Shown here piece after piece: positions 12,561-18,483 of a stretch of 64,000 nt of DNA. Both the position numbers and the translations under genes were made by a program. The notes under the pieces were generated by a model that was not told the DNA's origin, searched no databases, and worked only from the letters and a program-made list of their open reading frames with translations. Where the stretch lies: NCBI GenBank assembly GCA_030603365.1, contig JAUVXV010000001.1, forward strand, positions 128,001 through 192,000, in the 5' to 3' direction. This DNA is from Candidatus Heimdallarchaeota archaeon (GTDB lineage: Archaea > Asgardarchaeota > Heimdallarchaeia > Heimdallarchaeales > Heimdallarchaeaceae). Every line of letters starts with the position of its first letter. Position 1 is the stretch's first letter.

Positions 12561-13280
12561 TCAGTTTTGATATTTAGTGGGGTCTGTTTTTTTAGCTATT
12601 TTGAAAGCTCTTTTTCTTCTTTGACAGGATTCACATGAACCACAATGAATAGGGTAACCTTCATCTGACCACTGTTTTACTTGATAACATGACGAAGAAA
12701 ATTCTATTTTTGCTTCCTTCTCATCAAGATATTCAACAATATCCTTTTTTTGATAATCATGAAATGGTGCAACTACCTTAATTTTATTCATACATCCAAG
12801 TTTTATTGCATCATTCATTCGGTTTACAAATTCTAAAGTATTATCCGGAAAAGTGTTACCTTCCTCCTCATTGGCTCCAAAGAGAATATCGACGGGGGCA
12901 TCAAAACTATCAGCAAAAGACGCAGCGATAGAAATGAACAATATATTTCTCCCTGGAACCCAAACTGCTTTTGCAGAATGTTTTGTTAATTCTTCAGAAT
13001 CAAGTTCTTCAATTTTATTTATCTTAGGAGGATTTTTTCCTAATTGAGAAAGACTAGAACCTGATTTTTGAGCAAAATTACCTAAAAATGGCAATTCAAT
13101 AATTTCGCTTTCTATTCCAAGAAAAGATGAAAATCGTTTATTGATTTTAGTGATGGTTGTATCTTCTTTACTCTCATAAAGAAAACTTAGCAAAATAATC
13201 TTCTCATATTTCTCTAAAGCCCAATAAAGACATGCTGTCGAATCTAACCCTCCTGAGAATAGGACTATTGCGGTCTTCAT
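12561..13280 (-). CDS. queC: 7-cyano-7-deazaguanine synthase
   Basis: SGGLDS, VPGRN, FPDN, SCY...CGSCESC. Confidence 0.93.
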   Translation of the reverse strand: MKTAIVLFSGGLDSTACLYWALEKYEKIILLSFLYESKEDTTITKINKRFSSFLGIESEIIELPFLGNFAQKSGSSLSQLGKNPPKINKIEELDSEELTKHSAKAVWVPGRNILFISIAASFADSFDAPVDILFGANEEEGNTFPDNTLEFVNRMNDAIKLGCMNKIKVVAPFHDYQKKDIVEYLDEKEAKIEFSSSCYQVKQWSDEGYPIHCGSCESCQRRKRAFKIAKKTDPTKYQN

Positions 13281-13341
13281 TTTGATTCTTCTCTATTTAA
13301 AGTGTAATTTCACGTATTATCTGTGTATTATTTTCTTTTTC

Positions 13342-13803
13342 TTATTCGGTATATGAAACAATACTTGTGGGTGTTTCTGCCATTGTAACTGTAATTTTGA
13401 ATTGGGGATATTTCTTTTTTAGTTTATCATGTAAGAATTTTGAGAGCAGTTCAACTGTAGTTGCTTCTAATGGAACAAGTACAACATCTTCCTTGGGGAA
13501 ACGATAAAACTTTCCATCACAAGTTGAGATTTTGTATTGTTTTTGATCCAATTCTATGTCAAGATTTGGATTATTTTCAGGAAGTAAGATTCTATGATCC
13601 AGCTCTTTTACTATCTTACCAACACTTGTTTTGAATGGTCCAAAATCAATTAACATGTTATTTTCGTCAAGATCGCCTTCAATCTCTACTTCTATTTCAT
13701 AATTGTGTCCATGAAGACGGGCACATTTATCGTGTTTGATTAGCATATGTGCTGAGGCTAATGTCAATTTATCTCCAGAGATTTTTAATTTCATCTTTAT
13801 CAC
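13342..13803 (-). CDS. queD: 6-carboxytetrahydropterin synthase
   Basis: SAH, CARLHGHNY, LDH, TTVE, ET. Confidence 0.9.
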   Translation of the reverse strand: MIKMKLKISGDKLTLASAHMLIKHDKCARLHGHNYEIEVEIEGDLDENNMLIDFGPFKTSVGKIVKELDHRILLPENNPNLDIELDQKQYKISTCDGKFYRFPKEDVVLVPLEATTVELLSKFLHDKLKKKYPQFKITVTMAETPTSIVSYTE

Positions 13804-14436
13804 TCAAATTGGTCTTGTTTTTGAAACATCCTCTTTTATTTTTGTTATCTCATGTGAATAATGCTGCGCTATAACCATAGCAATTTTTTCTAGCTCTTCT
13901 TCTTTTATTCCTAACTCAAGAAGCCCTATTGCTTCTACATGAGAAGGAAAACCTGTACTAGCAATATTTATGCCCAAATGAATTTTGCTGCTTGACACAC
14001 TTATTGTAGCAATTGCAACATTCAATTTTCTGTTGTTTACGTACATGTCTGTTCCTTTTCTTATAATATCTATCCCCTTGTCTTTTAGAACCTCTATTAC
14101 TATCTGAGTTAAAACTTGCAGTCTATAATACTCCATTTCCATGTTTGGAGGTTGGGTGTCAAATTCTTCGATTATAAAATGTAATGAATCATCTGAGCTT
14201 ATCAGAATCTTGTTTAGATGTGCTTCTCGAATTATATCTTTTATATCTACCATTTCTTCAGGAGATAATTTCATCCCACCTCGAAAAATAAGTATTGTCT
14301 CCCCAAAAATACCATACTTCTCTGTAGTATAATGATTTGCTATTTGGGAACCATCATATATCTCAGAATTTGAGAAATCTTTTACGATTATGTTATAATG
14401 ATGTTTTTTAAAATTCTTCATCATTTTCAAGACCAT
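13804..14436 (-). CDS. DUF366 family protein (biotin/lipoate ligase-like fold)
   Basis: YDGSQI, MVDIKD, HFIIE, GTDMYV..RKL.VAIAT, HLGIN. Confidence 0.8.
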   Translation of the reverse strand: MVLKMMKNFKKHHYNIIVKDFSNSEIYDGSQIANHYTTEKYGIFGETILIFRGGMKLSPEEMVDIKDIIREAHLNKILISSDDSLHFIIEEFDTQPPNMEMEYYRLQVLTQIVIEVLKDKGIDIIRKGTDMYVNNRKLNVAIATISVSSSKIHLGINIASTGFPSHVEAIGLLELGIKEEELEKIAMVIAQHYSHEITKIKEDVSKTRPI

Positions 14437-15376
14437 TTAATTGTTCTTTTAATTTTAGTAAAGTTGTTTTCACTTCCGCAACAGCATTATGTTGATGAAT
14501 GCTCTCGTAATTAATTTGTTTAACACATATATGTGTCTCAGGGGGTTGATTATTATATTTAAGCGCTACCTGCTTAAGAATGGTACGAACCACGTCTTCT
14601 ACAAAAACTGGGTTTTGATGTGCATATATGACTACTGCCTGTTCATCTTTTCTTTTGAGCACTTCGTGTGTAGGAGCACTCATAGAATTTTCAAGTATTA
14701 CAATTACATCCTCTAATTCGATTCTTTCAGCGTTTCTAGGTTGTTCAAACACTAGTATAGACTTAGATCTTTGATTGTGAGATGCTAAAGGCATATCTTC
14801 TAGAACTAAATCAATCTGTTCTTTTGTAAATCCCTTTTCAGCAAGTTTCTCTTGTGCAAAATCTCTAGATAATTCCTGAGAACAAGGGCAGACTGTGGTT
14901 CCTTCTACTTCTGCTCCTATGATTTTTGTGACTACTATTTTTTCGCCGTTTTTCTTTGCACGAGCACCTGCGATTAGTTTATGAACTCCTGATTTTTCAC
15001 TTTTTATAGCTTCGGAATAAGTTTTCAACTCGTAATCAGCAGTTAGATTAACTTCCGAATTTGTAGCACCAGGTTGAGCTAAAAGAACCTTTTCTGCTAT
15101 TTGTGAACATAATTCTTCACAATCTGAAATTACTTCACCAGTAAGAGTTGCTATTACTTCATTTATTGCTTCTATATTACGTGACATATGAATGCCTCGT
15201 TTTGAAGGAAGTAAATCAACATACACATCTATTTTGGCTGAAAGTTCATTAAACTCACCAAATCTTTTACGTTTAATGATTTTGGGAATATCACACACTC
15301 CTACTCTTCGAATACCAATTTGAATTTTAGAATCATCAGACTGAACATCCGATAGTGCTTTACTGTTTAGTTTCAT
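14408..15376 (-). CDS. mptA: GTP cyclohydrolase FolE2/MptA family
   Basis: GIHMSR, TVCPCS, HNQRS, LKRKDE, FVEDVVR, ESIHQHNA. Confidence 0.88.
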   Translation of the reverse strand: MKLNSKALSDVQSDDSKIQIGIRRVGVCDIPKIIKRKRFGEFNELSAKIDVYVDLLPSKRGIHMSRNIEAINEVIATLTGEVISDCEELCSQIAEKVLLAQPGATNSEVNLTADYELKTYSEAIKSEKSGVHKLIAGARAKKNGEKIVVTKIIGAEVEGTTVCPCSQELSRDFAQEKLAEKGFTKEQIDLVLEDMPLASHNQRSKSILVFEQPRNAERIELEDVIVILENSMSAPTHEVLKRKDEQAVVIYAHQNPVFVEDVVRTILKQVALKYNNQPPETHICVKQINYESIHQHNAVAEVKTTLLKLKEQLNGLENDEEF

Positions 15377-15386
15377 GTTTTGTCAC

Positions 15387-16196
15387 CTATAGGATTTCTA
15401 CGGCTTTGTGCATTTGAATTGAGATTCCAATTTTGTTAGCGGGAAGATATTTACCGGCAATTTGAGTAAATTTGTTAACTTGATTCCAAGTAGGTTTTTC
15501 AACTTTTGATTCTTTAGTTGGAGTAACAAATTGAATTACTATCGGAATATCAATTTTTCCACATTTCCTTGCTATTATCTCAAAATCTTCGTCTTTTGAG
15601 GATTTAGTTATTACAGTTTTTGCGAAAACCTTAGTACCTGATTTTTGAAGAATTTTACTCATTAATATTTCTTGTTCTATTAATTCATCCCAATCTAATG
15701 CGGCTTCAGAACTCCTGTCTTTGATGTCCACACAAGCATAATCTATGTCTTTAGCTATTTTTTCAAGAAACTCAAAGTTGTCTGTAAAGGCAGTTTCTAG
15801 ATATATTTTGTAACCATTTGACTTGAGAAGCTTAATTGATTCTTCAAGAAATGATTCTTGAAATAAAGGTTCCCCTCCTGTAAAACTTACTGAGTGTAAA
15901 TCATTCGTTGTAAGTTTTTTGATAATTGCTAACACATCTTCAGAAGTTAAAGGATTTTCATATTCCTTAAATTCTTGACTCCCCGGTTTAGTTTCAATAA
16001 TGCACTTCTCTGGTGTTGCACTCCAAGATTTAGGGGAATCACACCAAATACAACCTTTTGTTCCATGAACACCTAAAGCTAAAGGACAACCAGAGAATCT
16101 AATGAAAATCTGCCTTAATCCGTAACAACTTCCATTGACGGCAGCTCCTTCTCCTTGGAAACTAGAGAAAATTTCTTGGATATATCCCTGAGACAT
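15387..16196 (-). CDS. queE: 7-carboxy-7-deazaguanine synthase (radical SAM) with CX11CX2C motif
   Basis: EIFSSFQGEG, FIRFSGC...CIWCD, TGGEP, QMHK; que context. Confidence 0.9.
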   Translation of the reverse strand: MSQGYIQEIFSSFQGEGAAVNGSCYGLRQIFIRFSGCPLALGVHGTKGCIWCDSPKSWSATPEKCIIETKPGSQEFKEYENPLTSEDVLAIIKKLTTNDLHSVSFTGGEPLFQESFLEESIKLLKSNGYKIYLETAFTDNFEFLEKIAKDIDYACVDIKDRSSEAALDWDELIEQEILMSKILQKSGTKVFAKTVITKSSKDEDFEIIARKCGKIDIPIVIQFVTPTKESKVEKPTWNQVNKFTQIAGKYLPANKIGISIQMHKAVEIL

Positions 16197-16263
16197 CGAA
16201 ATACGATTTTCCTAATTCTAAATAAGAATTGCTTATGTTGTTAAAAAAATATAAAAAGAAAAA

Positions 16264-16731
16264 CTAGAGACCATATCTACCTATCTGTTCGAAAGTTGCG
16301 AATTTTTCTACATATTCTTTAACTTTGCGAGCATATTCTTTTGGATCTCTCTTCATTAGATTGGCAGCAGTTGAATTTAAAGGGTCATCTGGATTTGGAT
16401 TACATAAAATAAATCTGATTGATTCAATAATATCAACTAGGTTATTTGCTGGTGTCCAATCAACGCCTAGAACTCCCACGCATATTCGAGTGTCAAAGAC
16501 ATTAGCATGAAATACTTTTGTTAACATTTTTACTTTTGGAGGTTTAAATGGATATTCTCTCGGAATTTCTATATCCAATACGAAAACACCTCCTTCATAT
16601 AATCCTGCACCAAAGATGAATCCTCGCCATGATAGAGTATTTCCGTCAATTGGTTTGAAAGTAGGTAATTCCTTTTTCAACTCATTTGCTTCTATCGCAA
16701 TTCTAGGCCAGAATTCTTCTTCAGATAACAT
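16264..16731 (-). CDS. Ubiquitin-conjugating enzyme E2
   Basis: YEGG.F, EYPFKPP, FHANV....IC (catalytic Cys), WTP, PNPDDPLN. Confidence 0.93.
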   Translation of the reverse strand: MLSEEEFWPRIAIEANELKKELPTFKPIDGNTLSWRGFIFGAGLYEGGVFVLDIEIPREYPFKPPKVKMLTKVFHANVFDTRICVGVLGVDWTPANNLVDIIESIRFILCNPNPDDPLNSTAANLMKRDPKEYARKVKEYVEKFATFEQIGRYGL

Positions 16732-16769
16732 TTCATATCCCTTGCATTTTTGATTTTTGAATTTATTTG

Positions 16770-16934
16770 CTAATATCCTCCAGTGCTCTTGTTCTGCATT
16801 TCAAGTAATATCATAAGTACTGCAGCAATTAATCCCTTTTGATCTCCTGCAATTCTTTTAAATTCTTCCCTCTCTAACATCATCGATATAGAACGCCATC
16901 TAACAAGTAATTCTACTATATCTCTTTCACTCAT
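16770..16934 (-). CDS. Unannotated 54-aa ORF ending ...STGGY
   Basis: Manual translation MSERDIVELLVRWRSISMMLEREEFKRIAGDQKGLIAAVLMILLEMQNKSTGGY*; ATG preceded by GAAGG; fills the gap upstream of the E2. Confidence 0.65.
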   Translation of the reverse strand: MSERDIVELLVRWRSISMMLEREEFKRIAGDQKGLIAAVLMILLEMQNKSTGGY

Positions 16935-17087
16935 TAGCCTTCATTTAAGAAAAGTTGGCTTAGCTTTATTAAGATTATGTCTCTCCTAATGAGATTGAAA
17001 GTTTTTGATAAATTTTGAGCTATTTTATAATACGCCTAAGCCACAAATTTTTTTAAATTTAAATTATTATTATATTTGTGAATATTA

Positions 17088-17753
17088 ATGAGTAACCCAG
17101 AGGAAATGTTAGTGCAATTAATTAATTCGATTAACAAACTATCTACATTAGTTCAAAACGTTAATGATTCAATTGCTAAATTATCTACCCAAATATCTCA
17201 ATTAGAAACTAAGATGGCTAGTTTTTCAAATGTTGAAACTCAAGTATCAGAAGTTGGTCTTAAACTTGGAGAAATCCCTGGAATAAAAGACATGATTTCT
17301 AATTTAAATGCAAAAATTGATGGGTTAGGAACTGTCGTGAGCGCTTCTACAGCTCAAGCTTCTGAGGCTAAGTCTAAGCCAGTAAAGAAGAAAAAGCAAG
17401 AAGAGTATGTTTCTCCTGCTTTGGTTGAAGAAGAACCCACTATTGGTGCATCTTCTGAAGCAGATTCTGCATTTACTGCTGTTTCAGCAAAATTTAATCA
17501 TATAACACAAATGGTTAGTCCCAACTCGAGTTGTGGAAATATCGAAAAAATGCTTGTTGAACTTAGAGATGAAGTTGAAACTCAAGTTGGGATGTCTCCA
17601 ATGCTGTATGAACTAAACTCTTGGGTACAACGAGTTTCTAAAATGCCAGAATCAGATGTTCTTCTTCCAGAAATTCATAGCGAGCTTCTTGAAAAATTAG
17701 ATGATTGGCTTACCCGGGTAACAAAAGCTATCCACTTAAAGTATCAAGAGTGA
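17088..17753 (+). CDS. Hypothetical protein: N-terminal coiled coil, linker, helical C-domain
   Basis: Heptad pattern over residues ~5-80. Confidence 0.7.
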   Translation: MSNPEEMLVQLINSINKLSTLVQNVNDSIAKLSTQISQLETKMASFSNVETQVSEVGLKLGEIPGIKDMISNLNAKIDGLGTVVSASTAQASEAKSKPVKKKKQEEYVSPALVEEEPTIGASSEADSAFTAVSAKFNHITQMVSPNSSCGNIEKMLVELRDEVETQVGMSPMLYELNSWVQRVSKMPESDVLLPEIHSELLEKLDDWLTRVTKAIHLKYQE

Positions 17754-17847: not shown

Positions 17848-18483
17848 ATGATGAATCTTAGTGATGTAAAGGGCGTTATAGAGATAAATGGCACATCTTA
17901 TGATCCAAAAAACGTAATTAAAGCTCTCCTTGAACAGGGGTTGAAGATTCATCCACTTAATGGTTCATTATTAATTGGACGAACATTTGTTGATCCCACA
18001 CCAAATCTACAATATAGTACAACTTCCTGTCCTATTTCAGATCATTGTAAGATTTTTGATAAGCTGTATCTACAAAAACCAGGGGAAGTAAATTCATCTT
18101 CAGATGACCAAAATCAAACCTCTCCTTCAGTTGATTTTTATTCCAATCCCTTTAAGACACCTTCTGATCGATTTTACACTGACCCTATTCAGATTGATAT
18201 AGATGATCTCGATATTACAAATCTTTTCTCTGATTCAACAAAAAGAACTCCCTCAATTGATGAACATGAAAGCACTAGTCCCCTAGATTCAGATTTTAGA
18301 AGAGATTTAGATTCTGATCCTTCTGAAATGATGGGTTTATCACCTGTAACACGTTATGGGTTAACATCAAACATTAAGGAATCAATTGTCCCTGCGGAAT
18401 ATAGGGGAAGGTGCACTTACTGTAATTCAACAGTCAATATAAGATGGAAATATTGTGGAAGTTGTGGGACTTCCATAAACTAA
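17848..18483 (+). CDS. Hypothetical protein with low-complexity middle and C-terminal zinc ribbon
   Basis: C-terminal CTYC...YCGSCG. Confidence 0.7.
   Translation: MMNLSDVKGVIEINGTSYDPKNVIKALLEQGLKIHPLNGSLLIGRTFVDPTPNLQYSTTSCPISDHCKIFDKLYLQKPGEVNSSSDDQNQTSPSVDFYSNPFKTPSDRFYTDPIQIDIDDLDITNLFSDSTKRTPSIDEHESTSPLDSDFRRDLDSDPSEMMGLSPVTRYGLTSNIKESIVPAEYRGRCTYCNSTVNIRWKYCGSCGTSIN

Follow-up and report, generated by a model that had tools for sequence, protein, structure and literature searches.

In Asgard archaea and in Caldiarchaeum, operons are known that carry the genes for ubiquitin (Ub), E1, E2 and a small RING E3. An E1-E2-RING ubiquitin cascade has been demonstrated in Helarchaeia (10.1101/2023.07.25.550441). 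Hatano et al. 2022 (PMC9192718) count HeimAB125_07740, of the Heimdallarchaeota-labelled genome AB_125, among the E2s and give it a putative catalytic Cys. The locus described here lies in a stretch of 64,000 nucleotides, hereafter the window, and its E2 is orthologous to the E2 of the operons. The window E2, however, is located outside such an operon and beside a small helical gene, whereas the Ub-E1-UEV/Vps23/Vps28-ESCRT cluster of the same genome has no catalytic E2. The AB_125 pair HeimAB125_07740/07750 resembles it most. The window E2 shares a 90% cluster with OLS32550.1, the AB_125 E2, to which the locus tag HeimAB125_07740 was assigned from adjacency, and the small ORF is orthologous to OLS32551.1, one accession away. 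Of this pair, only the E2 was found in the literature searched; its small neighbour was not found mentioned there, and no Pfam or NCBIfam family fits it. The original prediction had termed the small ORF unannotated. This is correct for the ORF track on which it was based, but public gene calls do hold the protein, as the annotated hypothetical HeimAB125_07750 / OLS32551.1 of AB_125. The features of the locus are listed in the Table.

Table. Features of the small gene-E2 locus and its surroundings (positions in the window)
Feature	Position	Strand	Description
Queuosine/archaeosine-type cluster	12561-16196		QueC-, QueD-like, DUF366, GCHY-1, QueE-like radical SAM
T-rich tract	16243..16263	(-)	directly after E2 stop; possible archaeal terminator
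Ubiquitin-conjugating enzyme E2 (UBE2D-like), 155 aa	16264..16731	(-)	Pfam UQ_con, His75-Ala-Asn77, catalytic Cys84
38-nt A-rich spacer	16732..16769	(-)	purine-rich, Shine-Dalgarno-like stretch ahead of E2 start; without T-run
Small gene, 54 aa	16770..16934	(-)	one helix-hairpin unit (residues ~2-48) and genus-specific Gly/Ser-rich tail ending Tyr/Phe
Tail of small ORF	16770-16787		last residue Tyr/Phe in all 24 tailed genus copies, GG variable
TATA-like box (TTAATAAA)	16965..16972	(-)	38 nt upstream of small gene; probable two-gene promoter
221-aa coiled-coil protein	17088-17753		divergent from small gene; kept adjoining across the family
211-aa protein	17848-18483		zinc ribbon at end; convergent with RadA/Rad51
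RadA/Rad51, 438 aa	18492-19808		acidic N-terminal extension, two helix-hairpin-helix regions

The E2 by itself is known and ordinary. It scores 116 bits against Pfam UQ_con (cut-off 27; E 1.3e-33), and its top PDB matches are UBE2D1-3 (E 4e-28). His75, Asn77 and Cys84 are invariant in 33 E2 orthologues, with A, P or V as the middle residue. The HAN in place of HPN that had been pointed out is present and proves to be a variant limited to two genera; the other orthologues have HPN or HVN, the latter in Hodarchaeales. Many other Asgard families have orthologues of this E2 within a Ub-E1-E2-small RING operon (L126-L145; E down to 1e-61). The E2 tree has one clade (support 98/92), comprising Heimdallarchaeia and families f32 and f33, whose E2 genes lie outside the Ub operon. 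Thus, the E2 that had been called stand-alone is most simply the displaced E2 of an ordinary ubiquitin system. Tandem duplicate E2 genes are seen in genome G042 (L115:3012-4000), and a Borrarchaeum-family genome, G307, carries two orthologous copies (L146, L147).

The rest of this system is encoded elsewhere in the genome. Ub and E1, correctly reported as missing from the window, were located ~140 kb from the small ORF on the same contig, in an operon of pro-ubiquitin (ending GG-S), E1, a UEV-Vps23-Vps28 fusion and ESCRT genes. The same genome (G000) also has a second catalytic E2 adjoining JAB protease and membrane RING genes (C17:26750-27280), and a UEV-Vps23-like gene divergent from RLI (C1:211491-212147). 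The Heimdallarchaeia searched yielded no short RING of the operon type. The idea that the small protein substitutes for the small RING E3 was dropped, since both co-occur in the f32 genome G397, where the Ub cluster contains a RING gene of 112 aa and the small gene is linked to the E2, and in Borrarchaeum.

The small ORF is a genuine gene. As had been described, it ends in STGGY and its stop lies 38 nt ahead of the E2 ATG on the same strand. Its conservation, on which the original prediction was made to depend, is complete among the 30 other genomes of its own family (30/30). In 23 full-length genus copies the pN/pS of the core (residues 2-48) is 0.084 vs 0.074 for the E2, so the core is under purifying selection like that of the E2; the value for the tail (residues 49-54) is 0.56. 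The near relatives are in Heimdallarchaeota-labelled genomes, including AB_125, and in Ca. Heimdallarchaeum, which assigns the window to an Asgard archaeon of Heimdallarchaeaceae type. Sequence searches of PDB, Pfam, NCBIfam and the ESM Atlas gave no usable match to the protein, no paper naming it was found in the literature searched, and the family appears to be undescribed there. The 19-residue hydropathy maximum is 1.4 (0.7-1.9 over the family); with maxima this low, a membrane protein is unlikely.

The Gly-Gly-Tyr end had led to the proposal of a modifier without the ubiquitin fold, whose GG-Y precursor would be processed before the adjacent E2 is charged with it. The window copy does end GG-Y after a flexible linker, ahead of an intact E2, and like Ub, SAMP, Urm1, ThiS/MoaD and Pup it is small, with GG plus one residue at its end. 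The terminal GG, however, is not conserved. Among 25 genus genomes, 10 copies end GGY, 5 GGF, 6 GVY and 3 RGY, and 1 is tail-less. In the other genera of the family, each of the six copies ends ahead of such a tail, and distant members are tail-less too. GG-X is therefore found in 15 of the 70 genomes that carry the family, all of one genus. Such an end is also no more than chance would produce, a possibility of which the original prediction had warned: this genome has GG or GG-X at the end of 31 ORFs of 45-140 aa. The all-helical AlphaFold2 models differ from the beta-grasp fold of the ubiquitin-like modifiers; Pup is disordered, acidic and ends GG-Q/E, in contrast to the ordered helices, net charge of 0 and Y/F or absent tail of the small protein. 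The tail is the least constrained part, a canonical pro-ubiquitin is present in a Ub-E1 operon complete but for the E2, and a search of the genome (89% complete) returned no Pup ligase PafA/Dop (PF03136), the control being positive. These results largely refute the modifier proposal, which is now very improbable. The aromatic last residue of the tail may be a genus-specific docking end; an HbYX motif was ruled out for it, as the aromatic is terminal.

Linkage of the small gene to the E2 extends far beyond this locus. The family was detected in 70 of the 400 Asgard genomes searched, and in 63 of these carriers the gene directly adjoins the orthologue of this E2, in tandem upstream of it in 29 and head-to-head in 34. 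By lineage, the E2-linked carriers are 31/31 in its own family, 10/10 in f6, 21/22 in Hodarchaeales and 1/1 in f32; four further assembly loci likewise have the small gene beside the E2. What else lies nearby varies: queuosine genes at this locus and in f32, MetRS in f5 and f6, RLI in L173, and also a GTPase. Divergent order is found in Ca. Heimdallarchaeum and the outer lineages, which suggests that head-to-head order is ancestral and that, in its own family, the small gene was inverted to form an operon with the E2. In family f33, a gene that resembles that of the 221-aa coiled-coil protein, by appearance only, is divergent from the E2 (L192:13308-14195).

Linkage is not universal. Four Borrarchaeum genomes, f29 and one Hodarchaeales genome, G076 (71% complete), have a small gene without linkage to the E2. 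In G076, a two-unit gene (L187:3749-4045) has no adjoining E2 and no E2 orthologue was found; one genome of f7, a two-unit carrier, is among the 70 and outside the 63. Families f3, f4 and f33 and the operon-type lineages all have the E2, but no small gene was detected in them; the E2 thus does not need the small protein. No clear set of E2 residues distinguishes linked from partner-less E2s of the same clade, and no fusion of the small protein to the E2 was seen, which is a weak test; the search for longer or fused forms, weak in the same way, returned one truncated or chimeric protein only. Since the linked cases all belong to a single E2 clade and kin are not independent, the linkage may represent one ancestral event that was then retained. 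The small gene could accordingly encode an unrelated small housekeeping protein, held by the E2 through a compact shared promoter or an old syntenic block. This is the main rival to a partnership with the E2 and a serious possibility, though tentative. The unlinked copies in Borrarchaeum and f29 and the loss in f3, f4 and f33 are in line with it, as are the greater frequency of divergent over operon order and the presence of queuosine genes and the GTPase in the same old block in several lineages (the queuosine cluster adjoins the E2 orthologue in f1, f32 and f33; L072, L176, L192). It accounts less well for the small gene being the sole neighbour kept over f1, f5, f6, f32 and the L173 lineage, and for the single TATA-like box common to the two genes in most of the own family.

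This box, TTAATA[AT]A, is positioned at -36 to -39 of the small gene in 29/29 tandem loci, and no TATA-like box is present at the corresponding position before the E2. The spacers between the genes are 28-66 nt long, with one of 109 nt, and a run of 5 T is absent from all 29. The one box before the pair, the lack of one before the E2 and the spacer without a T-run point to a single transcript for the small gene and the E2 here. A run of at least 5 T follows the E2 in 15/29 loci only, so that conservation of this element is weak.

The divergent loci raise another possibility, that of a small dimeric DNA-binding regulator which controls the E2 gene from the shared promoter. Head-to-head order in 34 of the 63 linked genomes would fit this, as one member of a conserved divergent gene pair is often a regulator, and the two-unit members of the family are mildly basic (pI ~9). 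The one-unit members, however, are neutral (net charge 0, pI 6.2), the models contain neither a helix-turn-helix nor a ribbon strand, and none of 13 intergenic regions tested had a palindrome above shuffled background. A regulator of this type is therefore improbable.

The helical appearance noted from the sequence was borne out by AlphaFold2, which predicts a two-helix hairpin (helices 3-19 and 23-51, pLDDT 92) with no strand and a tail of low confidence. Profile searches define a family unit of ~45 residues, made of a Trp helix, a loop and a hydrophobic G-[LI]-I-A-A helix. One-unit proteins (49-57 aa) are found in the own family, Borrarchaeum, f29 and the L173 lineage, and two-unit tandem proteins (86-103 aa) in f6, Hodarchaeales, one f7 genome and f32. 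The two-unit relatives are modelled as a four-helix chain without strand (pLDDT 94, pTM 0.82), which suggests that the one-unit proteins may dimerise. The Hodarchaeales members were first spotted beside the E2; a bridging protein, P0091, then connected them with the family (hhalign probability 87.7, E 3.4e-6). Direct comparison of the f6/f32 and Hodarchaeales alignments was weak (E 0.09), and homology is drawn from this bridge together with the common repeat layout and identical gene position. Weak profile matches in f20 (135 genomes) were set aside as PadR-like or otherwise unrelated proteins. In fold searches the one-unit model matched best the dimer helices of P5C reductase (Z 6.3, rmsd 2.5 over 50 residues), and the two-unit model AAA+ helical lids (Z 6.5-6.7) and, in the atlas, part of a DUF4003 repeat protein (TM 0.71); Foldseek gave no match to the two-unit model at E up to 0.001. 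These matches are generic, none is outstanding, and none proves the fold to be new.

The C-terminal half of the protein is reminiscent of CUE/UBA helices, a likeness that serves as a lead only. Together with the linkage to the E2, this could point to a dedicated substrate of the pathway or a ubiquitin-binding module, UBA/CUE-like or similar to steadiness boxes, which in Asgard archaea are ubiquitinated helical hairpins (10.1101/2023.07.25.550441). Yet the family alignment has no invariant lysine, the model has two helices per unit and not a three-helix bundle, and hhalign against the C-terminal hairpins (steadiness boxes) of Asgard Vps23 gave a probability of 0.3% over 7 columns, a value that still leaves room for very remote kinship. 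No match to UBA/CUE Pfam families was obtained for 52 small-family members at E up to 1. Such a role appears as improbable as that of a DNA-binding regulator, if not slightly more so.

The original prediction had offered a small E2 partner or adaptor as its other option. This suggestion agrees with the strong gene linkage across distant Asgard lineages and is plausible from gene context. We infer a dimer, co-transcription and a physical or functional role at the E2; from gene linkage only, the probability that the small protein acts non-covalently and probably as a dimer, whether as partner of the E2 or as its regulator, is put at roughly 0.45. Counted in favour are an adjacency (63/70) that survives both gene orders, one TATA-like box before every tandem pair, a core constraint equal to that of the E2 and the confident four-helix model of the two-unit relatives. 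Counted against are the unlinked copies, the E2s without the small gene, the lack of separating E2 residues or of a fusion, and the queuosine genes, which likewise remain next to the E2 in three lineages although nothing evident connects them with it functionally. Complex prediction with two small-protein copies (residues 1-50) and the E2, with alignments for each, scored 0.00 and carries no weight either way.

In such a partnership, the soluble helix-hairpin protein would most likely pair with itself into a four-helix bundle, its relatives having fused two hairpin units in a single chain. It would be co-expressed with a canonical ubiquitin E2, sharing a transcript with it at this locus and lying in head-to-head order in most of the other lineages. 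It would probably bind the E2 or its pathway non-covalently as an adaptor, stabiliser or activity regulator, acting via the conserved helical core (Trp13 and the G-[LI]-I-A-A helix) and not via the tail. In eukaryotes, the short helical modules Cue1 U7BR, gp78 G2BR and Pex22 dock on E2s and tune them. They may serve as a working analogy, but they are parts of larger membrane proteins, whereas the small protein is free, of one or two units, and has no detected sequence link to them.

The stronger proposal, that the family is a dedicated, physically bound E2 cofactor or adaptor which arose, as the E2 moved out of the Ub operon, in the clade holding Heimdallarchaeia with Hodarchaeales among them, is somewhat unlikely. 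If it is true, ubiquitin transfer in these archaea, which are close relatives of eukaryotes, would have a non-RING regulator that is as yet undescribed. Any action of the small protein on the E2 would mean one more component in the archaeal ubiquitin cascade of the lineages nearest eukaryotes, and would make the regulation of E2s by small helical partners older than eukaryotes; failing such action, it would be another conserved hypothetical protein. The role is cheap to test, since E. coli has served before as host for the expression of ubiquitin, E1, E2 and E3 proteins from Asgard archaea. Families f3 and f4, in which no small gene was detected, often have another helical protein, of 118-125 aa, next to the E2 (L110:3533-3889, L116:2414-2791, L117:2460-2816), followed by a gene of ~850 aa.
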